Below are positions 2,389 to 62,111 of a stretch of DNA of 64,000 bases, in pieces (position 1 is the stretch's first letter; every line of letters begins with the position of its first letter). The notes beneath the pieces were generated by a model that worked only from the letters and a program-made list of their open reading frames with translations, searched no databases and was not told the origin of the DNA. The stretch comes from a bacterium (GTDB lineage: Bacteria > Patescibacteriota > Minisyncoccia > Phycocordibacterales > UBA5272). The stretch spans positions 14,116 to 78,115 of the forward strand of contig JAYUJP010000053.1 of the NCBI GenBank assembly GCA_043765155.1, given 5' to 3'. Made by a program: the position numbers and the translations under genes.

Positions 2389-2835
2389 AACGGCCTCCTT
2401 TTTAAAAATTAAGAACGAAACAATGAGCGGACACTTAATATAACACAAAAATATTTAAATGTCCAGCAAATTTTTTGAACTTTAAAAACTTTAATATACA
2501 AAAATCTTTTTAAAAATACAAAAACCCTCAAATTAATAAATTATTTCGAGGGTTTTTGTATTACATTCACTGACATATATAATATTACTTCTAACTTCTT
2601 ATGAACTTCCTTTTTGTTCCACTTTTTAGCTCGCTAATCCTTGTGAATTAGTAAAGAAAAATTTAATTTTCTAACATATAGTGAGACTTTTGATATATTT
2701 CGCAATATCGCGTATAGTTTATTATAAAGTTCTATAAAAACTTTTAAGACGAATAGTTATTCTCTTGCGAGAGTCTTGTTCACTTGTCAATCGCCGAAAT
2801 GCATGCACCCAATTGGGTGTGCACGATTTCCAATT

Positions 2836-4360
<1,525 letters not shown>

Positions 4361-4674
4361 AAAGTGGAACAAAAAGATTGTACATAAGATATTCACATCG
4401 CACTTATACCTCTTTTTGTAAATTCTCATAAATAAATATGAGAACAAATATAAGTGTTGATAAATGTGAATATTAGTTGGATTGAAAATAGCTTATAACA
4501 AAAGCGTTTGAGAACCTTTGTGTCTATTTTCGTAATATTATATTGTCAATGAACGTGAGAGCAAGTATAGCATAATGAAAATAAAAATGCAAGCAAATGT
4601 CCTTGGACACTTACCTGCATATTGGTTAACTAGAATTTCCTGAAAGAACTACCCTAAATTTAAGAGTTTATTTT

Positions 4675-4887
4675 CTAATTACCTCCAAGCATGGCACCAC
4701 AAGCATTGCATCCGTATGCAAGATTGTCATCCCACAGGTCATCGCTGCCGCAGTGTGCGCAACGACCCGTATGGTGACCAACAGCCTGATTATTTGGATT
4801 ATTTTTAGCTCTCAGCTCTGCCAACTCTTTTTCATCTTTCGGCAGTTTTGGTTTAAAAATTGAAAGATTTTCTGTAGTATAATTCAT
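4675..4887 (-). CDS. Small zinc-ribbon protein (C-x2-C ... C-x2-C), 70 aa
   Basis: Intact ORF with the motif CAHCGSDD...GCNACG. A canonical SD (AAGGAG, revcomp of 4895-4900) lies 7 nt upstream. GC is elevated relative to neighbours. Confidence 0.5.
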   Translation of the reverse strand: MNYTTENLSIFKPKLPKDEKELAELRAKNNPNNQAVGHHTGRCAHCGSDDLWDDNLAYGCNACGAMLGGN

Positions 4888-4924
4888 TTGATAGCTCCTT
4901 AAAAAATTAAAATAAAACTAGCTT

Positions 4925-5050
4925 GAACTTTACGAAAAGCTGCAACATCATTATCGCAACTTTTCTCCGCTATGAATACTACAATAAAAGTAATATTTTT
5001 GCAAATGTTACAAAATAAAAAGCAAGCTCAGATTTCTCATTGCTTGCCTG
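4925..5050 (-). repeat. Copy A of a ~125-bp intergenic cassette-boundary element (hairpin terminator plus T-tract plus promoter/SD region)
   Basis: About 85% identical to 5474-5597. Contains the hairpin GCAAGC-N14-GCTTGC followed by TTTTTATTTT on the minus strand, and TTGCAAC/TCGCAAC direct half-sites. Confidence 0.7.
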
Positions 5051-5111
5051 TTAACTTATTGACTAAAAAGGATTGATCAAGCTAAGCGAGCTGAAAAGAT
5101 TTACAGGTTGC

Positions 5112-5438
5112 TTATAACCGACTCAGACTACACTCTTTAAAAAACCTCACATGACGACTACCACCAAGTGTAGAGGTTTTGTTTTTCCACTCGAACAAGT
5201 TACTACTTAGTAAGAGATCAATTAACTGATCAGCATAAACTATACGACTTTTTATAAAAGATTCGAATGCAGGATCAGAATCTGATAATTTTAATAGGTA
5301 GTTAAAAAAACACAGTTTAAAATTATCTATTTCGTCATATTCAATACTCACAATTTTTTTCTTTTTTACTTCTGCCGCGAAAATGCTTAAGCAGTATTTA
5401 TTTTTTTCTTCCAATTGACTATCATTAAGAATTGCCAT
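5112..5438 (-). CDS. Hypothetical small protein (about 108 aa)
   Basis: ORF 5112-5456 trimmed to MAILNDSQ... because the SD GAAGGAG (revcomp of 5450-5456) lies 8 nt upstream of that ATG. No domain recognised. Confidence 0.45.
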   Translation of the reverse strand: MAILNDSQLEEKNKYCLSIFAAEVKKKKIVSIEYDEIDNFKLCFFNYLLKLSDSDPAFESFIKSRIVYADQLIDLLLSSNLFEWKNKTSTLGGSRHVRFFKECSLSRL

Positions 5439-5473
5439 GACAAATATCTCCTTCAAAATTTGAGTTCAAGTTG

Positions 5474-5597
5474 AATTTCCTAAAAAGTTGCAACATAATT
5501 ATCGCAACTTTCTCCGTTATAAATATTACAATAAAAATAGCATTTTTGCAAATTATGAAAAATAAAAAGCAAGCGTAGATTTCTCATTGCTTGCTTG
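5474..5597 (-). repeat. Copy B of the ~125-bp cassette-boundary element
   Basis: Aligns base for base with 4925-5050 (the same GCAAGC...GCTTGC hairpin, TTGCAAC...TCGCAAC, and tttttgcaaat...aaaataaaaagcaagc). Confidence 0.7.
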
Positions 5598-5632
5598 TGT
5601 CGTGTTTGCTAATATAATAGCTTTTCTGCCCT

Positions 5633-5839
5633 TTAACTTACCACAGAAACCATGCCGGAAAGAATAAATTCTTTTAGCAGCTCCATGCGTTCTTTGAGCT
5701 TTGGAGCTAGCCCCATCTTTACGCCTTTTCGTGGATCTGTTTCATCTGCTTTACCTGAGACTAGCGCTACATACTCGTCCAAGATTTCTTTGGGATCCAT
5801 TTCCTCCAAAGGCTTATCGTAATTTGGTTTTTGGCTCAT
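5633..5839 (-). CDS. Hypothetical small acidic protein, 68 aa
   Basis: Intact ORF with an SD-like AAGGA 9 nt upstream. GC is around 43%. No domain recognised. Confidence 0.45.
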   Translation of the reverse strand: MSQKPNYDKPLEEMDPKEILDEYVALVSGKADETDPRKGVKMGLAPKLKERMELLKEFILSGMVSVVS

Positions 5840-5970
5840 GTTTAAAAAATCCTTAAAAAGAACAGTAGATAAAACTATCTACTTGGACTTTGTATAATAC
5901 AATATTTTTAATATTTTTGCAAATAAAGAAAAAGAGTTTTAAAATATGATATAATATACCCAAGAAAAAT

Positions 5971-8900
5971 ATGAATCCAGTACACTTGCGCAATCATACT
6001 CATTACTCCCTCTTAAGGGCTTTGCCTGATGTGTCTGAGCTGGTCAAAAAAGCTGTCGAGTATAATTATACCGCGCTTGCCATCACCGATACAGATAATA
6101 TGTACGGCGCTATAGAGTTTATAAAAGAATGTCAGAAAAAGAAAATTAAGCCAATAATCGGAGCTGAGCTAAAAATAAAAAATCATAATCAGTATTATGA
6201 CATAGTCCTAATAGCTAAGACTTTTGTCGGTTATCAGAACTTGATGCGACTAGTATCCGTAGCTAATACAAAAGAAATTAAAAATGATAATCCGCATCTT
6301 ACTTTTGAGGACTTTGTGCCGAGCAAAAAGAATAACTTGGTGATGGAGCCAAGAGGTGCCGCCTTTGGATACACCTCCTCTGAAGAAATAAAAAATAGCC
6401 TTGGAATAATTTGCCTCTCGGGCGGACCTACTGGCGAGCTAAGTATAAGCTTACAAAAATATGAAGACAGAAATATTTTAGAAGCTAAGAATATTTTAAA
6501 TAGATATGTAGAAATATTTGGCGATGATTTTTGTATTGAGATAACCAATCATATTCATATGAGTTATGGAAAAGAAATGAGAACAAATACCCTAGATTTT
6601 TATAATAATTTTGTCAAAAATAATTTCCCGCAGAATAAAATAGTAGCGACTCAAAATACTCATTATATCTCTATAAATGATAAGCCGGCCCATAAAGTCA
6701 TGATACAAATAGACAGCGAGATAGACTCAGAAGAATACTATAAGGCGCATTTCGCGCAGGCCGATTACTCATTTTTAACAAAAGAAGAATTTATAAATGC
6801 CTTTGCTGATATACCTGAAGCAATAGAAAATACTAGTAAGATAGCGGACTCTATTAACTTTGAAGTAGAGCTAAATAAATGGGTATTTCCAGATATAGAA
6901 TTTGAAAAATCATATGATGAAGACCTACGCAAATTAGCCTATGAAGGTCTAGAAGTTAGGAAAAAAGAATTAACAGACGAAGTCAAAACTAGGCTCGATT
7001 ATGAATTAGAAGTTATAAAAAATAAAGGATACTCGCCGTACTTTCTTGTTGTGTATGATCTTTTAAGATACTCTAGAGAAAATGGAATACTTACTAATAT
7101 TAGAGGGTCTGTGGCTGGATCACTGGTAACTTATCTTCTTCGTATTACAAAATGTGACCCGCTCGAATACAAGCTTCCATTTGAGAGATTTTTAAATCCA
7201 GAACGTCCAAGTGCGCCGGACATAGATATGGACTTTGCGGACGACAGGCGTGATGATGTGCTTAATTACGCTCGCCGTAAATATGGAGCTGATCATGTGG
7301 CGCAGATCGGGACATTTGGTACGATGATGGCAAGAGGTGCCGTGCGTGACGTAGCACGCGCGATGAGCTTTCCTTATACTGTAGGTGACAGAATATCACG
7401 CATGATACCACCACCAAAGCAAGGCTTTCCAATGTATATAAGCAAGGCATTAGAAGAAGTACCCGAGTTAAAAGAGGCTTATGACACAGATAGGGATACA
7501 AGTATAATTTTAGACATGGCTAAGCAAGTCGAAGGTAAAGTACGCCACATTGGAGTGCATGCTGCGGGTACTGTTATATCCCCTGCACCGCTTACTGACT
7601 GGACCCCAATACAATATGATCCAAAAGGTGAAGGTAAACTCATCTCACAATATGACATGTATACTATCGAGGAGGCAGGGCTACTCAAATTTGACTTCCT
7701 GGGTATACGTAACCTCTCTATACTAGCAACAGCCATAGGCATAGTAAAAGAAAAATATAATATTGATGTCGACATAGAGGCCATACCTCTTGATGATGCT
7801 AAGACTTTTGAGATGTTATCAAAAGGAATAACTGAGGGACTATTTCAACTGAACGGATCCGGCATGACCAGATTTTTAAAAGAATTAAAGCCATCTACAA
7901 TTTTTGATATTAACGCGATGGTAGCACTGTATCGCCCAGGACCACTCGAGATGATACCAGAATATATTAAAAGAAAACATAATCCAGAGCTAATAGAATT
8001 TCTAGACCCTCGCCTCGAGCCTATACTTGATCAATCATTTGGAGTTATAGTATATCAGGACGACGTGATGTTAACGGCGATACATTTGGCGGGCTACTCT
8101 TGGCTTGAGGCTGATAAGCTACGTAAAGCCATGGGTAAAAAAATACCCGCAGAAATGGAGGAGCAAAAAGAAAAGCTCATGCTCGGATTTCAAAAGTATG
8201 GCCTTAGTAAAAGTAAAGCTGATGAGCTGTGGACAAGAATAGAGCCGTTTGCGGCTTATGGATTTAACAAGGCCCATGCTGCTAGTTATGGACGCGTAGC
8301 ATATCAGACAGCATATATGAAGGCGCATTATCCGCATGCCTACATGACCGCCATTATGAGTAATGAGACAGGTGATATAGAAAAGATAGCGACTATTATC
8401 GCAGATTGTAAGAGACTTAATATAAACGTACTACCACCCGATATAAACTTTTCAAATGGTGGATTTGAAGTTATTAGTAAAAATATAAATATTAATAGTG
8501 AAGATAAAATAGAAGAAGAAATTAGATTTGGATTATATACAATTAAGAACTTGGGTCAAGATATCGCAGACGCGATAATAGATGAGCGTAATAAAAATGG
8601 AAAGTACACAAGCTTTGAAAACTTTTTGACCAGAGTCACTCATAAAAACTTAACCAAAAAAAGTATAGAGGCACTCACCATGTGCGGGGCTATGGACACT
8701 CTAGCTGAGCGTAATAGTATAGTGCTAAATATAGAAGAAATTTTAAATTATCACAAACAAGTTATAAAAGATAACTCAGCCCAAGATGACCTGTTCTCAA
8801 CTATGCTGAGTATACAAAAACCAGAATTCAAATTAAAAAAAGTAACGCCTGCAACTGGCGACCAGAAATTAAAATGGGAAAAAGAATTACTAGGGTTATA

Positions 8901-9246
8901 TGTATCAGGATTCCCACTTGATCCGTGGAAAGATAAAATATTAGCTAGAAATATAGACATAGAGCGCATACAAAATGAGCTCAGTGATGACGCTGAGGTG
9001 TCGCTCGCTTGTATAATAGAAAGTCTAAAAGTAACCAAAACAAAAAAAGGGGACAGGATGGCACTCATCGGCATACGTGACTACTCTTCTAGTCTTGAAT
9101 GTGCAGTATTCCCAAAAACATATGCAAAAATAAAAGATAAGTTAGTTCTAGATACACCGCTAATATTAAAAGGTAAAGTCGCAAGCCGTAACGGGGACAA
9201 GACTTTTATTTTGGACGAGGTGAAGAGGTTGGATCAAACAAATTAG
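5971..9246 (+). CDS. dnaE: DNA polymerase III alpha subunit
   Basis: The N-terminal PHP domain (HLRNHTHYSLL...ITDTDNMYG) and overall length and architecture fit DnaE. An extended -10 tgatataat sits about 15 nt upstream. Confidence 0.95.
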   Translation: MNPVHLRNHTHYSLLRALPDVSELVKKAVEYNYTALAITDTDNMYGAIEFIKECQKKKIKPIIGAELKIKNHNQYYDIVLIAKTFVGYQNLMRLVSVANTKEIKNDNPHLTFEDFVPSKKNNLVMEPRGAAFGYTSSEEIKNSLGIICLSGGPTGELSISLQKYEDRNILEAKNILNRYVEIFGDDFCIEITNHIHMSYGKEMRTNTLDFYNNFVKNNFPQNKIVATQNTHYISINDKPAHKVMIQIDSEIDSEEYYKAHFAQADYSFLTKEEFINAFADIPEAIENTSKIADSINFEVELNKWVFPDIEFEKSYDEDLRKLAYEGLEVRKKELTDEVKTRLDYELEVIKNKGYSPYFLVVYDLLRYSRENGILTNIRGSVAGSLVTYLLRITKCDPLEYKLPFERFLNPERPSAPDIDMDFADDRRDDVLNYARRKYGADHVAQIGTFGTMMARGAVRDVARAMSFPYTVGDRISRMIPPPKQGFPMYISKALEEVPELKEAYDTDRDTSIILDMAKQVEGKVRHIGVHAAGTVISPAPLTDWTPIQYDPKGEGKLISQYDMYTIEEAGLLKFDFLGIRNLSILATAIGIVKEKYNIDVDIEAIPLDDAKTFEMLSKGITEGLFQLNGSGMTRFLKELKPSTIFDINAMVALYRPGPLEMIPEYIKRKHNPELIEFLDPRLEPILDQSFGVIVYQDDVMLTAIHLAGYSWLEADKLRKAMGKKIPAEMEEQKEKLMLGFQKYGLSKSKADELWTRIEPFAAYGFNKAHAASYGRVAYQTAYMKAHYPHAYMTAIMSNETGDIEKIATIIADCKRLNINVLPPDINFSNGGFEVISKNININSEDKIEEEIRFGLYTIKNLGQDIADAIIDERNKNGKYTSFENFLTRVTHKNLTKKSIEALTMCGAMDTLAERNSIVLNIEEILNYHKQVIKDNSAQDDLFSTMLSIQKPEFKLKKVTPATGDQKLKWEKELLGLYVSGFPLDPWKDKILARNIDIERIQNELSDDAEVSLACIIESLKVTKTKKGDRMALIGIRDYSSSLECAVFPKTYAKIKDKLVLDTPLILKGKVASRNGDKTFILDEVKRLDQTN

Positions 9247-30427: not shown

Positions 30428-31888
30428 ATGAAAACCAACGAAAACCAAAATCAAAATAAAAATGGAAAACCTAATTTAAATTCAGAAGAAGCTAAAGAAT
30501 TACAGCAAGAATCTAAGCTAACAAAACCGATTAGAAAAATACCAGTTACAGTATTGACTGGATTTTTAGGTTCTGGTAAGACTACTCTTTTAAATAAAAT
30601 TTTAGATGAGTGCAAAAAGAATGGAGAGAAAGTTGGTATTATAGAAAATGAATTTGGAGCTATATCTATTGATACTGACTTAATCTTAGGAAAAGATGAA
30701 GAGATAATGGAGGTCAAAAATGGCTGTATGTGCTGTACGGTTAGGCGTGACCTAGTTAGAGTGCTCAGAACCCTCATAGAAAAAGGTAATCCATATGATA
30801 GGTTAATAATAGAAACTTCTGGAGTCGCTAACCCGTCACCAATAGCTCAGACATTTTATGGCCTAGAAGATATATACGAGAATTTTGATTTGCAAGGTAT
30901 AGTTACTGTAGTAGACGCTAAAAATATATTAGACCAAGTAAAAACAGAGCAAGTGATACAAGAGCAAATTGCTTTTGCTGACCTACTAATAATGTCAAAA
31001 ATAGACCTTGTAGACGAGAAACAATTAGCTGAAGTTAATGCTATGGTCAATACTCTTTCTAACGGTGTTGAGATATTAGATATGAGCAATGCTCACGCTG
31101 ACCTAAATAAAATAATAAACTTGTCTGGCTTTAATCCTGAGAGGGCGTCAATCATAGACCCAAGATTTATGCAGCAAGATACACCGTATAAGTGGATAGG
31201 AGCTTATCATTTTGAAAAGGGAATATACAATATGGACTTTTATGCATCTGGTACATCTCATACTTCTGAGTTATTTTTACTAAGAAAAGAAGATAAAACT
31301 ATAGACCAGGAACTAATAAATAATAAATCAAAAGAAATATTTGACACTTTTTTCCTAGATCAAAAAGCCATGCGGGCAAATGGTAAAATAACAGTGAGCG
31401 ATGTCACATTAGAAAAAGCTTTAGAAGATAATAAGGTAGCAATTAAAATAGAAATAAAAGAAGCTGGAGACTATATGCTAGTCACTCAGCATATACCTGA
31501 AAGCATAATAATAAAAAGTGAGCAGAATGACAAAGTGGAAGTAAAATATTATCTAGAAAATAAAATAGAAACAAAATATAAAGAAAAAGAGGGTCTAGGC
31601 TCGGTCGCTATGACTAGCGATGAAGATGCTGACCCGATTGATATAGACGGATTTTTAGAGTGGCTAATAATGAATCCGGAATATAATATACTCAGAATAA
31701 AAGGTATATTTAAAATCAAAGGTAAAGAAAATCTTTTTGTAGTGCACAGAGTAAATACTGTGACTGAGACATATATGATACCAAGAAAAAATCAAGATCA
31801 GAAGACACAATTTGTCTGTATAGGTTACAGGTTGAATAAATTAGATATACAAAAAGAATTTAACTTTATATTTAATAAAGGGGAATAA
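30428..31888 (+). CDS. COG0523-family G3E GTPase (CobW/ZigA/YeiR-like metallochaperone), paralog 1
   Basis: P-loop GFLGSGKTTLLN, the metal-binding GCMCCT motif, and a CobW_C-like C-terminus. Confidence 0.85.
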   Translation: MKTNENQNQNKNGKPNLNSEEAKELQQESKLTKPIRKIPVTVLTGFLGSGKTTLLNKILDECKKNGEKVGIIENEFGAISIDTDLILGKDEEIMEVKNGCMCCTVRRDLVRVLRTLIEKGNPYDRLIIETSGVANPSPIAQTFYGLEDIYENFDLQGIVTVVDAKNILDQVKTEQVIQEQIAFADLLIMSKIDLVDEKQLAEVNAMVNTLSNGVEILDMSNAHADLNKIINLSGFNPERASIIDPRFMQQDTPYKWIGAYHFEKGIYNMDFYASGTSHTSELFLLRKEDKTIDQELINNKSKEIFDTFFLDQKAMRANGKITVSDVTLEKALEDNKVAIKIEIKEAGDYMLVTQHIPESIIIKSEQNDKVEVKYYLENKIETKYKEKEGLGSVAMTSDEDADPIDIDGFLEWLIMNPEYNILRIKGIFKIKGKENLFVVHRVNTVTETYMIPRKNQDQKTQFVCIGYRLNKLDIQKEFNFIFNKGE

Positions 31889-31920: not shown

Positions 31921-33306
31921 ATGCAAGATGAAAATGCCAAAGGTGAAAAAATTATAAACAAAAAAATACCCGTAACCGTTATAACTGGATTTTTGGGTGC
32001 TGGTAAGACCACTCTTATCAATAGCATACTTGGCGGCAAGCATGGTATAAAGTTCGCAATTATAGAAAATGAATTTGGAGAAATAGGTATAGATAATGAG
32101 ATACTCGAACATGCCGAGGAGGAAATAGTCGAGATGAATAATGGCTGTATATGTTGTACTGTACGAGGTGACCTCATAAATATAATTAAAAAACTTTTGG
32201 CCAGAGACGTGCCTCCAGAGCATATAGTCATAGAGACTACTGGTCTCGCCGATCCGTCACCTGTGGCTCAGACATTTTTAACTGATTCAGAGCTAATGCA
32301 AAAAACTTATCTGGACTCGATACTTACAATAGTGGATGCCAAGCATATGTATATACATCTAGAGAGTAGCCCGCAATACAAAGATCAAATAGCTTTTGCT
32401 GATACTATACTGCTTAATAAAATAGACTTGGTGGATGCCAAAGAAATAGAAAAAATAGAAAATGACATACTTAAAATAAATAGATTCGCAAAAATATATA
32501 AAGTCCAAAATAGTATTATAGACATAAAGAAAATACTCGGCATAAATGGCTTTGATGTAGAAAAAGCTTTGGATGTTAATTCAAAATTCTTAGAAATAGA
32601 ATACCCTTTTGAATACGGAGCTCTATATAACTTTAAGGCAGATGATTACACTCTAGAATTAAATAAAAATGGTGACGAGGATAAGATAAAAATCTTACTC
32701 GGTCCTATGACTAGGTCCATAGAGATGTCAGACCTTATGACAATAGCTAATCCGCTCGCCCTACTATTTTCAGAAAAAAATCAAGATATATTACTTGATG
32801 GCATGAGCATACCTCAGGAGCAGCAAGTCTTTACTTATGGATTAAAAGACTCGGTTAATATATTCAAATTTAGCCTAACTCAAGATTCTAACTTTTTCTT
32901 ATTTTCTGAGCATCACGCTAATGAGTTTGATTTAAAAATAAAAAATAGTAAAGGAGAAATAATAAAGCCTGCTGTATACAATAATTTTAAACCAGAACAT
33001 GAGCATGACGATGAAGTGTCTAGTGTGGGTATAGAAATAAAGGGGGAACTTGATCCTGCTATGTTTATCTATTATATAGACACGATTATAAAAGATTATG
33101 GTGTAGACCTTTATAGATACAAAGGAGTAATAGCTATAAACGGTGAGGATAAAAAGATAGTATTGCAGGGAGTGCATATGCTATTTAATATGACTCCATC
33201 TAAAAACTGGAATAATGAGGAGAAAATTAGTAAAATAATATTTATAGGTAAAAATCTAGATAGAGATATCTTAACTCAGGGATTTATAAGTTGTAAGATA
33301 AAGTAA
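31921..33306 (+). CDS. COG0523-family G3E GTPase, paralog 2 (tandem duplicate)
   Basis: GFLGAGKTTLIN and GCICCT motifs. Collinear with paralog 1. Confidence 0.85.
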   Translation: MQDENAKGEKIINKKIPVTVITGFLGAGKTTLINSILGGKHGIKFAIIENEFGEIGIDNEILEHAEEEIVEMNNGCICCTVRGDLINIIKKLLARDVPPEHIVIETTGLADPSPVAQTFLTDSELMQKTYLDSILTIVDAKHMYIHLESSPQYKDQIAFADTILLNKIDLVDAKEIEKIENDILKINRFAKIYKVQNSIIDIKKILGINGFDVEKALDVNSKFLEIEYPFEYGALYNFKADDYTLELNKNGDEDKIKILLGPMTRSIEMSDLMTIANPLALLFSEKNQDILLDGMSIPQEQQVFTYGLKDSVNIFKFSLTQDSNFFLFSEHHANEFDLKIKNSKGEIIKPAVYNNFKPEHEHDDEVSSVGIEIKGELDPAMFIYYIDTIIKDYGVDLYRYKGVIAINGEDKKIVLQGVHMLFNMTPSKNWNNEEKISKIIFIGKNLDRDILTQGFISCKIK

Positions 33307-51800: not shown

Positions 51801-51866
51801 TATAAAACTTAAAAAATATCTCATAAACTTTTTATGAGATATTTTTTATGGTATAATATTATTTAT

Positions 51867-52841
51867 ATGGAAAACACAAATAATAATATCTATGACCTCA
51901 TAATAGTAGGTGGTGGTCCATCGGGAGCCTCAGCTGCTGTGTATGCAAGCAGAAAGCAAATGAAGACACTTTTAATTTTAAAAGAATGGGGAGGACAAAG
52001 TGTAGTGAGTGACGATATACAGAACTGGATAGGTACTCCGCATATATCAGGCAATGACCTAGCCAAAAGCTTTAAGGCTCATGTAGAAGAATATGCTGGA
52101 AATTTCTTAACTGTACAGACCGGCTACAATGTAACTAGCGCTGAGAATATTCTAAATACAGAAAATGAAAACAAAACTTTAAAAAAAGTCATCCTTGATA
52201 ACGGAACAGAGTTTTTAGGAAAAGCTTTGCTAATAACCACAGGATCGATAAGAAGAAAACTAGACATAAAGGGAGCTGAGACTTTTGAACACAAAGGGCT
52301 AACCTATTGCGCCACTTGTGATGGACCTATGTATGGTGGTATGGATGTAGTTGTAGTTGGGGGCGGCAATGCTGGATTTGAATCTGCAGCGCAGCTACTC
52401 GCTTATTGCAAAAGCGTGACACTACTCTCTCGCGGAGAACCACGTGCCGATGCTATAACTATAGAAAAACTAAAAACTAATACAAAATTTAAATTAGTAA
52501 TTGGCGCTACTCCAACAGAAATACTTGGGGATAAATTCGTCTCAGGAATAATATATACAGACTCAAATAATCAAGAAGTAACATTAGAAGTTGGCGGCGT
52601 ATTTGTAGAAATAGGTCAAATACCCGCAACAGATTGGTGTAAAAATGTAGCCATGCTCGACGAATATGGTAAAGTAAAAATTAATCCTTGGAGCCAAAAA
52701 TGTGTAGATACAAATAATATAGACCTTGAAAATACTTGGGCCGCAGGTGACTGTACCAATATACTTTATCATCAAAACAACATAGCTAGCGGCGACGCTG
52801 TACGCGCCACTGAGGATATATATAAGACCATACACTCATAG
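51867..52841 (+). CDS. trxB: Thioredoxin-disulfide reductase
   Basis: YDLIIVGGGPSG FAD motif and the CATCDG redox motif. Start set to the ATG at 51867 (MENTNNN), 8 nt after the extended -10 tatggtataat. Confidence 0.8.
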   Translation: MENTNNNIYDLIIVGGGPSGASAAVYASRKQMKTLLILKEWGGQSVVSDDIQNWIGTPHISGNDLAKSFKAHVEEYAGNFLTVQTGYNVTSAENILNTENENKTLKKVILDNGTEFLGKALLITTGSIRRKLDIKGAETFEHKGLTYCATCDGPMYGGMDVVVVGGGNAGFESAAQLLAYCKSVTLLSRGEPRADAITIEKLKTNTKFKLVIGATPTEILGDKFVSGIIYTDSNNQEVTLEVGGVFVEIGQIPATDWCKNVAMLDEYGKVKINPWSQKCVDTNNIDLENTWAAGDCTNILYHQNNIASGDAVRATEDIYKTIHS

Positions 52842-61987: not shown

Positions 61988-62111
61988 GTTTTTATTATTT
62001 TTTTATTAATTTATTTCTATACTTTTATATATAAATAATATTATAACATAAAAAATGTTTTAGTTTTATATGGACAAAATATAGTATATGTTACTTTGTA
62101 TTAAAAATAAG

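Follow-up and report, generated by a model that had tools for sequence, protein, structure and literature searches.

Between dnaE and the 16S rRNA gene, the window analyzed here (the whole 64,000-nucleotide (nt) stretch of contig JAYUJP010000053.1) contains an array of three small open reading frames (ORFs) on the minus strand, g1, g2 and g3, and the two spacers that separate these ORFs carry copies of the same ~130-bp block. This locus raises the question of why one block should be repeated between small genes that are unrelated to each other. We propose that the dnaE-16S interval is probably a hypervariable slot of self-contained single-gene expression cassettes, which are exchanged by homologous recombination at their control blocks. 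The observations behind this proposal are the anatomy of the repeat, the alternative cassette contents found at the same locus in related contigs, a mosaic copy of the block, purifying selection on the ORFs, and the preservation of both hairpins of the block in a strand-specific manner.

Comparison of the window with itself by BLAST returned direct repeats at 4920-5051 and 5470-5598, which were 83-86% identical with a one-base indel and were spaced 547-548 bp apart; this pair of blocks was the sole intergenic repeat of the window. An earlier model-made annotation of the same letters (hereafter the sequence-only reading) had described two ~125-bp segments of about 85% identity, and these are the same repeats. 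Searches with sub-motifs of the block gave 2 to 3 matches, against 0.00-0.02 expected. By repeat, profile and self-comparison, unit copy 1 (5470-5598, minus strand), consisting of terminator, promoter and leader hairpin, lies between g1 and g2, and unit copy 2 (4920-5051, minus strand) lies between g2 and g3. Read in the sense of the genes, each unit has the same order i.e. an 8-bp hairpin with a T-run, then a predicted promoter, then a 14-bp leader hairpin and finally AAGGAG.

The 8-bp stem has the form A(A/G)GCAAGC-N14-GCTTGCTT and is followed by TTTATTTT. The predicted terminator of unit 1 (AAGCAAGC-N14-GCTTGCTT then TTTATTTTT; 5558-5596, minus strand) folds at -11.6 kcal/mol (z = -3.7), and that of unit 2 (AGGCAAGC-N14-GCTTGCTT then a T-run; 5012-5049, minus strand) at -12.9 kcal/mol. 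The GCAAGC-N14-GCTTGC hairpin with its T-run, which had been picked out from the letters alone, is therefore present in both copies. The promoter segment of the unit, ATTTGCAAAAAT, contains a -35-like TTGCAA, a spacer of 17 nt and TA(A/G)TAT; as read from the sequence, the predicted promoters are TTGCAA-17-TAATAT in unit 1 (5523-5551, minus strand) and TTGCAA-17-TAGTAT in unit 2 (4976-5004, minus strand). The leader hairpin, (A)GAAAGUUGCGAUA-AUNA-UGUUGCAACUUUU(U), has a 14-bp stem and a 4-nt loop and begins ~7-10 nt after the -10 box, i.e. a few nt past the predicted transcription start (5482-5513 in unit 1 and 4934-4965 in unit 2, both on the minus strand and both identified by folding). AAGGAG follows it by ~30-45 nt and precedes the ATG by about 7-10 nt. 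The hairpins of the block folded better than shuffled sequence. The motifs TTGCAAC and TCGCAAC, which the sequence-only reading had assigned to the promoter, are instead the two arms of the 5' leader hairpin and lie downstream of the predicted -10 box.

The two ends of the array are built differently. In front of g1 there is a third copy that is limited to the promoter (predicted promoter TTGCAA-17-TATTAT, 5894-5922, minus strand), which was found both by its match to the unit promoter and in a promoter scan; the region 5894-5924 is identical to the unit promoter at 28/31 positions. The window thus holds two full copies and one partial copy. The 5' leader of g1 has a hairpin of its own (8 bp, 5864-5883, minus strand), which is unlike the unit hairpin in sequence. 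Behind g3, the predicted terminator of the last cassette (4577-4620, with the stem at 4620-4587, minus strand) has a 15-bp stem, a 4-nt loop and a T-run, folds at -21.2 kcal/mol (z = -6.5), is much stronger than the unit terminators and abuts the upstream region of the 16S gene. It agrees with the unit terminator at 22/24 positions over GCTTGC-T-run-CAT, a score equaled by 3 to 7 of 500 shuffles. Of the two degenerate partial copies that had been suspected at the ends of the array, the one near 5900-5930 is therefore well founded, and the one at ~4578-4600 is weak. A leader-like remnant of 22 nt, CTTTCAGGAAATTCTAGTTAAC (repeat D6; 4625-4646, minus strand), lies in the 3' untranslated region of g3 at the fixed right end of the array. 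It is similar to the segment CTTTTTAGGAAATTCAACTTGAAC that follows the hairpin in the leader of unit 1, and it is kept downstream of a different gene, ORF88, in a related contig (L124, described below), and the fixed right end looks like a truncated leader fused to a terminator.

The TTGCAA at 5917-5922 is its own reverse complement and also scores as the -35 box of a plus-strand TTGCAA-17-TAAAAT (5917-5945) that faces dnaE; the candidate promoters of g1 and dnaE would then be back-to-back and divergent, with one common -35 box. A small plus-strand ORF or an antisense RNA within the unit was also considered and was rejected, since the indel disrupts the frame and no ribosome-binding site is present.

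The sequence-only reading had proposed checking whether related genomes differ in their number of cassettes, and at least four gene arrangements were found at this locus i.e. g1-g2-g3, g2-ORF106, ORF121-ORF148-g3 and ORF121-ORF88. The arrangement of the window, g1-g2-g3, was retained in variants with 93-98% nucleotide identity (contigs L010, L017, L018, L020-23 and L121). Contig L011 keeps g2 and the second unit and has an unrelated 106-amino-acid (aa) ORF (ORF106) in place of g3; its homology to the window stops shortly before the ribosome-binding site and is regained exactly at the base of the last terminator. Contigs L122 and L123, which are identical and independent and come from different samples, represent a sister lineage (16S 97.8% identical) with the order ORF121-unit-ORF148-unit-g3-terminator-16S. 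Terminator, promoter and hairpin are complete in both of their units, which are 80-87% identical to the window units and to each other. Contig L124 belongs to the lineage of L122 and L123 and comes from the sample of L123; it has the order ORF121-ORF88-terminator-16S, with no g3, and its left breakpoint falls immediately after the -35 block, with ORF88 lying behind the truncated block. The suggestion of a cassette system with duplicated regulatory boundaries is therefore supported, as the same block flanks unrelated ORFs in L011 and in L122/L123, and a different gene is present in L124. The 16S side is common to all of the arrangements and the dnaE side is documented for g1-g2-g3 only. Misassembly at the repeats is unlikely to have produced these arrangements, because identity between the copies is no higher than 80-87% and each novel ORF is continuous with sequence of the locus at both of its ends.

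In a further contig, L019 (16S 97.8% identical), g3 and the 3' half of the leader are fused to unrelated DNA inside the hairpin loop. In this part of the contig (L019:1-640) the junction reads ...TATCA|GATAATGATG..., and the opposite strand of the unrelated DNA holds a partial ORF of 199 aa for which neither Pfam nor PHROGs gave a match. This junction may be a rearrangement or an assembly chimera.

The arrangements bear directly on the possibility that the repeat is a plain local tandem duplication without a present role, or a decayed miniature inverted-repeat transposable element (MITE) or satellite, with repeats that are now drifting apart. This would account for there being only two full copies in the window, about 85% identical, and for the lack of copies in the public scans. 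However, the sister lineage retains the block, with the same sub-elements, around entirely different ORFs; the substitutions spare both promoter boxes, the ribosome-binding site and the positions at which a change would break a stem; gene conversion keeps the copies alike; and neither terminal inverted repeats nor target-site duplications nor dispersed copies were found. The genes beside the repeats are mutually unrelated, so that there is no duplicated gene-plus-spacer unit, and tandem gene duplication was rejected on these grounds. A MITE or a repeat of the repetitive extragenic palindromic (REP) type was likewise rejected, as the block lacks terminal inverted repeats and has no other copies in the window, and its matches among the GTDB representative genomes (genome_contigs) were at chance level. 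The decayed mobile or satellite-like array entertained by the sequence-only reading is unsupported for the same reasons, and also because no copies were found in 80 related dnaE loci. We consider any explanation of this kind very improbable.

A trace of exchange between copies was found in contig L018. Its unit in the g1-g2 spacer (IG1) has an IG1 flank, followed by the 3' half of the terminator and the promoter of the type found in the g2-g3 copy (IG2), followed by an IG1-type leader. This IG1/IG2/IG1 mosaic indicates gene conversion between the two unit copies. The breakpoints vary in position between arrangements and lie behind the -35 box, in the gap that separates the hairpin from the ribosome-binding site, inside the loop, or at or near the terminator. 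No recombinase, integrase or transposase domains were found within ~10 kb either side of the array (gene table of the matching contig L006) or in the cassette ORFs. The L018 mosaic, the varied breakpoints and the lack of a recombinase within ~10 kb together favor general homologous recombination over a site-specific enzyme.

Variable breakpoints also separate the array from an integron. CALINs are clusters of attC sites without an integrase, and the cassettes of integrons are mostly promoterless and are expressed from a common Pc promoter. The array resembles both in being a one-directional series of small single-ORF cassettes with hairpin-forming boundaries and strain-variable content, and differs in having a promoter for each cassette, variable breakpoints, no integrase and no attC cores. 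In an integron-like or other site-specific cassette system the leader or terminator hairpin would be an attC-like folded single-strand site, at which a recombinase inserts and excises cassettes. Such a system would explain why both hairpins are preserved on one strand only, with changes compatible with G-T or G-U pairing as in the bottom strands of attC sites, why the L019 junction lies inside the loop of the leader hairpin, and why each cassette consists of one small ORF, with all of them pointing the same way. It would not explain the absence of an integrase or recombinase gene in the ~10 kb either side, the hairpin arms, which are unlike the attC R''/R' cores (RYYYAAC / GTTRRRY), the presence of a promoter in every cassette, or the differing breakpoints of the variants, which are unlike a fixed crossover point; and the pattern scans of public collections yielded no real copy elsewhere. 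We therefore give a site-specific system only a small probability. An integron or CALIN in the strict sense was rejected, as there was no Phage_integrase match in the L006 gene table, the arms GTTGCGA and GTTGCAA violate GTTRRRY, and each cassette has its own -35 and -10 boxes. A bolder version of the proposal would nevertheless make the strand-specific leader hairpin the recognition site of a recombinase, in an integron-like system whose cassettes carry promoters.

To compare constraint on the elements of the block, we used 7 to 8 distinct unit copies from the window and the related contigs. The -35 and -10 blocks were invariant, those of both window promoters across 8 copies, as were GGAG(A)AAAGTTG and GATAAT-ATGTTG across the 7-8 copies, and variation was seen in the promoter spacer and at the third base of the hairpin loop. 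All of the stem cells were paired, 140/140 for both unit hairpins and 108/108 for the 14-bp leader stem, including the stems of both predicted terminators. Five stem pairs varied in each of these counts, and every change was one-sided and gave G-U; in the leader stem, two further pairs are G-U in every copy. As G-U pairs become A-C mismatches on the opposite strand, a meaningful fold of the hairpins is limited to the transcript or to the sense single strand. In the terminator of the last cassette, 73/75 cells were paired across 5 lineages, with one double change from G-C to A-T.

This pattern of conservation would also be expected if the block were a shared cis-regulatory RNA or operator, with the leader hairpin acting as a protein site or attenuator that co-regulates the small genes and the cassette variation being incidental. 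In two lineages, no part of the unit is better conserved than the 14-bp hairpin with the GGAG on its 5' side, the variation is limited to the third base of the loop and to wobble-compatible stem positions, and a U-run (CUUUUU) after the hairpin would make attenuation possible. Against this, Rfam offered no match to such an RNA even at E = 10 (nothing in the Rfam comparison reached the gathering score, the best matches at E <= 10 scoring 12-20 bits where the cut-offs are 40-376), the element is no more than a hairpin, without a multi-stem architecture, and the leaders of g1 and ORF88 do not have this hairpin. The upstream terminator and the promoter are repeated as well, which indicates that a whole module was copied and not a sensor alone. 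We consider co-regulation unlikely as the explanation of the locus, although it is compatible with cassette exchange and may be a layer added on top of it.

From the order and conservation of these elements we infer terminator, promoter and stabilizer activity and a recombination mechanism for the proposed slot of exchangeable cassettes. The hairpin and T-run of the block would stop the upstream transcript, and the sigma-70-type promoter TTGCAA-17-TA(A/G)TAT would restart transcription. The 14-bp hairpin would then lie near the 5' end of the new mRNA. Stem-loops at the 5' terminus can protect mRNA from 5'-end-dependent RNases, and the most likely role of this hairpin would be as a stabilizing cap against such enzymes. 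A strong AAGGAG ribosome-binding site would follow, and each ORF would in this way become an insulated single-gene unit. At the end of the array, the stronger terminator of the last cassette would shield the adjacent rRNA promoter region from cassette transcription. The direct-repeat blocks and the conserved flanking genes would serve as portable homology, i.e. homologous recombination in or near the blocks would convert copies and would replace, add or remove the ORF between them. The outcome would be different gene sets in close strains, with the expression of neighboring genes undisturbed.

The genes themselves are consistent with the picture given by the sequence-only reading of three small same-strand genes with ribosome-binding sites of the AAGGAG type, all of which lie on the minus strand. 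According to the ORF list, g1 (5839-5633, ribosome-binding site AAGGA) encodes an acidic orphan of 68 aa (isoelectric point 5.1), g2 (5438-5112, GAAGGAG at 5448-5454) an orphan of 108 aa counted from its ATG, and g3 (4887-4675, AAGGAG at 4895-4900) a 70-aa zinc ribbon with a CxxC...CxxC pattern. Their reported elevated GC content applies to g1 and g3 (both 43%, compared with 35.6% for the window) and not to g2 (30.6%). GC content at third codon positions (GC3) is 0.33 in g3, as in dnaE, so the elevated GC reflects amino-acid composition and not recent arrival. Ratios of nonsynonymous to synonymous polymorphism (pN/pS) among strain variants, based on small counts, were 0.13-0.28 for g1, 0.11-0.36 for g2 and 0.04-0.13 for g3. 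As these values are well below 1, all three behave as coding sequences, and the three ORFs of the window are under purifying selection.

Profile searches, which had been suggested as a check on the three products, placed g3 in a family and left g1 and g2 as orphans; these two are thus not the conserved syntenic housekeeping genes that would have spoken against a cassette system. The relatives of g1 and g2 were limited to copies at 94-97% identity, and an exhaustive HMMER search of 1.84 billion representatives with g2 returned only its own cluster. ORF121 and ORF148 formed singleton clusters. None of g1, g2, g3, ORF106, ORF121, ORF148 and the L019 ORF had a significant match in Pfam, NCBIfam, PHROGs or PADLOC, the Pfam and PHROGs comparison covering six of the seven cassette ORFs, and the cassette ORFs other than g3 had no PHROGs match at E <= 0.05. 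A pairwise comparison of g1, g2, g3 and ORF106, with ORF121, ORF148 and ORF88 outside its scope, showed no similarity among these four. The single-sequence structural model of g2 (predicted local distance difference test score (pLDDT) 72) gave no meaningful structural match, and neither g3 nor g2 had a match among 50,697 GenBank phage records.

A total of 148 homologues of g3 were found, at 60-80% identity. They are ~70 aa long, share an almost invariant core (TGRCxHCGSxxLWDDNLAYGCNxCG) and have no Pfam model. The AlphaFold2 model of g3 is a confident zinc ribbon (pLDDT 90); its sole resemblance in the PDB was to a TFIIB-type zinc ribbon at E = 3.8, and a PDB profile search was empty. The homologues occur in prophage or phage replication and nucleotide-metabolism modules. 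In a Nitrosomonas ureae prophage the homologue is accompanied by DNMK, SSB and an integrase; other contigs with homologues carry P22 antirepressor, Toprim, NT5C or Nuc_deoxyri_tr2 domains; and further homologues are found in 13 IMG/VR contigs and in Ralstonia and Burkholderia megaplasmids. The g3 family is therefore a conserved, uncharacterized small phage protein. We also noted that in higher-GC prophages and viral contigs its members lie repeatedly beside DNMK, NT5C, Nuc_deoxyri_tr2 and Phage_30_3 (L001:5403-6407; L026:5544-7284; L027:401-2072; L024:5204-6063).

The phage connections of g3 raise the possibility that the genes and blocks were left by an integrated phage, as a remnant of a prophage early region or as a set of phage morons. 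The occurrence of the g3 family in phage replication or nucleotide-metabolism modules and in megaplasmids would fit such an origin, as would the moron-like organization of each unit, which by prediction is transcribed independently, from a promoter of its own to a terminator of its own. The setting argues the other way: the array is flanked by dnaE and the 16S gene, its neighborhood is that of a cellular chromosome (dnaE, 16S, rpoBC), and the L006 gene table lists no phage genes, integrase or att-like repeats within ~10 kb of it. In addition, the unit profile found no copy in 18 g3-homologue loci (5 prophage- or plasmid-like contigs and 13 from IMG/VR), its motifs had no exact match in IMG/VR, the other cassette ORFs lack PHROGs matches, and the GC3 of g3 matches that of the host dnaE. 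The elements that carry g3 homologues have a GC content of 42-67%. A prophage remnant was accordingly rejected on its cellular neighbors and on GC3, and we regard a phage-derived set as the least probable of the explanations considered here.

The closest parallel to the array comes from phages nonetheless. In T4-type phages the promoter-early stem-loop (PeSL) consists of a stop codon, an AT-rich stretch, a sigma-70 promoter, a stem-loop and a ribosome-binding site (Arbiol et al. 2010, PMC2839356). In the hyperplastic regions of these phages, ORFans lie next to PeSLs and are inserted, deleted or replaced by recombination, and crossovers have been mapped to the AT-rich part or to the stretch that leads from the -10 box to the ATG (Arbiol et al. 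2010, PMC2839356; Comeau et al. 2014, PMC4122927). A further mark of PeSL cassettes is the excision of mini-circles through recombination between neighboring motifs. The array has corresponding parts i.e. an upstream stop, an AT-rich stretch, sigma-70-like -35 and -10 boxes, a ribosome-binding site and a start. It likewise flanks ORFans or unmatched ORFs, and its relatives differ in ORF content with crossovers inside the blocks. The stem-loop associated with the promoter of a PeSL is a terminator or attenuator; the hairpins of the array are predicted to fold and are kept across copies. PeSL cassettes are transcriptionally insulated, which for the array is a prediction only. The array differs, however, in lying in a cellular chromosome between dnaE and 16S and not in a T4-type phage, in having 2 to 3 copies at one locus where a phage genome has dozens, in showing no sequence similarity to PeSLs (its stems are not of the GGGG/CCCC type), and in having two hairpins per block, one (the terminator) ahead of the -35 box and the other (the leader hairpin) behind the -10 box. 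By analogy, the array would work like PeSL cassettes while falling outside the PeSL family, and PeSLs appear to be its closest functional analogue.

A more specific form of the proposal would be a cellular, PeSL-style 'ORFan slot' in the chromosome of what is probably a small-genome bacterium, in which the block beside the rRNA gene serves as a docking and expression module that captures new or phage-derived small genes, has them expressed immediately and swaps them between strains. We put this forward tentatively, at somewhat below an even chance.

Two other known systems share some of these features. The minimal mobile element (MME) of Neisseria, as defined by Saunders & Snyder (2002) in the form quoted in PMC3787668, varies in content among closest relatives between conserved flanking genes. 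As in an MME, the content of the array varies by strain, mobility genes are lacking and exchange is attributed to homologous recombination. MMEs use the flanking genes as homology arms, whereas in the array the internal blocks are repeated and carry the breakpoints. Judged by these likenesses, the array would fit most of the MME definition, its dnaE flank being documented for one arrangement only. Phage morons are autonomous transcription units with their own promoter and terminator, which lie within a phage or prophage genome and differ in GC content from their neighbors (Juhala et al. 2000; reviewed in PMC3594210). The array resembles them in that genes are set singly between unrelated neighbors, each with a predicted promoter and a predicted terminator, and in that one of these genes, g3, is of a phage or plasmid type. 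It differs in lying outside a prophage, in having boundaries that are paralogous copies of one block, and in the match of its cassette GC3 to that of the host.

Several points weigh against the proposal that the interval is a slot of exchangeable expression cassettes, and they concern both the control elements and the variant arrays. The promoters, terminators and transcription starts are predictions at the level of consensus sequences. A generic promoter scan was not enriched over shuffles in this AT-rich region and scored only the g1 promoter of the three array promoters, and the unit terminators, with their unusually large 14-nt loop, failed a terminator scan. The covariation check that the sequence-only reading had recommended came out negative for the unit hairpins: all of the stem changes were one-sided, and neither unit hairpin showed a double compensatory change in the 7-8 copies. 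Most transitions in the 3' arm would preserve pairing anyway. In the absence of a double compensatory change, the evidence from the unit hairpins is consistent with selection for pairing, short of proof of it. The variant arrays come from short metagenome contigs of 1.2-3.5 kb, and the array contigs of L122 and L124 end before the left (dnaE) flank. Finally, the block system is known from one locus in one clade.

This last point rests on the following searches. The unit pattern gave 4 matches in genome_contigs, which is the chance number as estimated by hand, and the one match that was inspected, in a Saccharibacteria contig, lay inside a coding region. Scans of the Joint Genome Institute (JGI) metagenomes with the unit pattern and of IMG/VR with three exact patterns gave 0 matches each, an nhmmer search with the unit profile found no extra copies in the window or in the collected related loci, and there were no copies of the block in the 80 related dnaE loci. 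The nearest dnaE relatives elsewhere (in JGI metagenomes) were 62-65% identical, and none of them had a 16S gene within 5 kb upstream. The sequence of the window itself is present exactly in several ENA and Logan assemblies of one study, which we take to be a study of glacier-fed-stream metagenomes.

If the ORFan-slot reading is correct, the modular shuffling of genes by regulatory cassettes would be a general mechanism and not a specialty of T4-type phages. Under the broader proposal, the locus would be a compact chromosomal example of gene turnover around a reusable expression module. A block of ~130 bp would insulate, promote and probably stabilize any small ORF placed behind it and would at the same time supply the homology for exchange. 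Such a module bears on how orphan genes are tried out and spread, on how phage-type small proteins enter streamlined genomes without integrases, and on how general the PeSL mechanism is beyond T4-type phages. The mechanism has a phage precedent; a chromosomal case with four coexisting configurations is unusual.

Both flanks of the array are conserved. On the left, dnaE (1091 aa; 5971-9246, plus strand, from the ORF list) is transcribed away from the array, and its product has PHP, DNA_pol3_alpha and other Pfam domains in the gene table of L006. On the right, the 16S rRNA gene (2834-4359, minus strand; Rfam RF00177, 1346 bits) starts at 4359, and the array is directly upstream of the rRNA leader, in agreement with its earlier placement immediately upstream of the rRNA promoter. 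The 16S gene stands alone, with no 23S or 5S gene within the 64-kb window. Compared with 16S probe sequences, it has a sequence of the EUB338-II type, ACACCTACGGGTGGCTGC, and lacks the TM7 probe sites; matched in the same way, its 907-926 region has an unusual GGAATAGACGG. Gene sizes, GC content and the origins of the dnaE relatives hint at a bacterium that may be CPR/Patescibacteria-like.

In contig L121 (1145-4393), dnaE was called as two ORFs of 92 aa (PHP domain) and 967 aa, which hints at either a frameshift or an error in sequencing close to its 5' end. At more distant dnaE-related loci, which are taken to derive from bacteria of the candidate phyla radiation type, small accessory genes are bracketed by direct repeats of 40-65 bp (L070:8104-8898; L048:495-1209; L049:8237-8883; L095:896-1550; L081:956-1675). 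These repeats duplicate either the end of a neighboring gene or a promoter-like or hairpin element. Judged by eye, the bracketed genes may be one HepT/MNT-type pair (with a duplicated dnaE 3' end), one RelE-type pair and, in three cases, a recurrent gene for a membrane-like protein of ~190-200 aa. Insertion with duplication of a local regulatory element or gene end may be common in such genomes. Elsewhere in the window, a 34-bp inverted repeat, 91% identical, lies at 51841-51874 and 62023-62056, ~10 kb apart, and the neighboring ORFs 30428-31888 and 31921-33306, which share a 71%-identical stretch (30535-30753 and 31962-32174), are probably paralogues in tandem.

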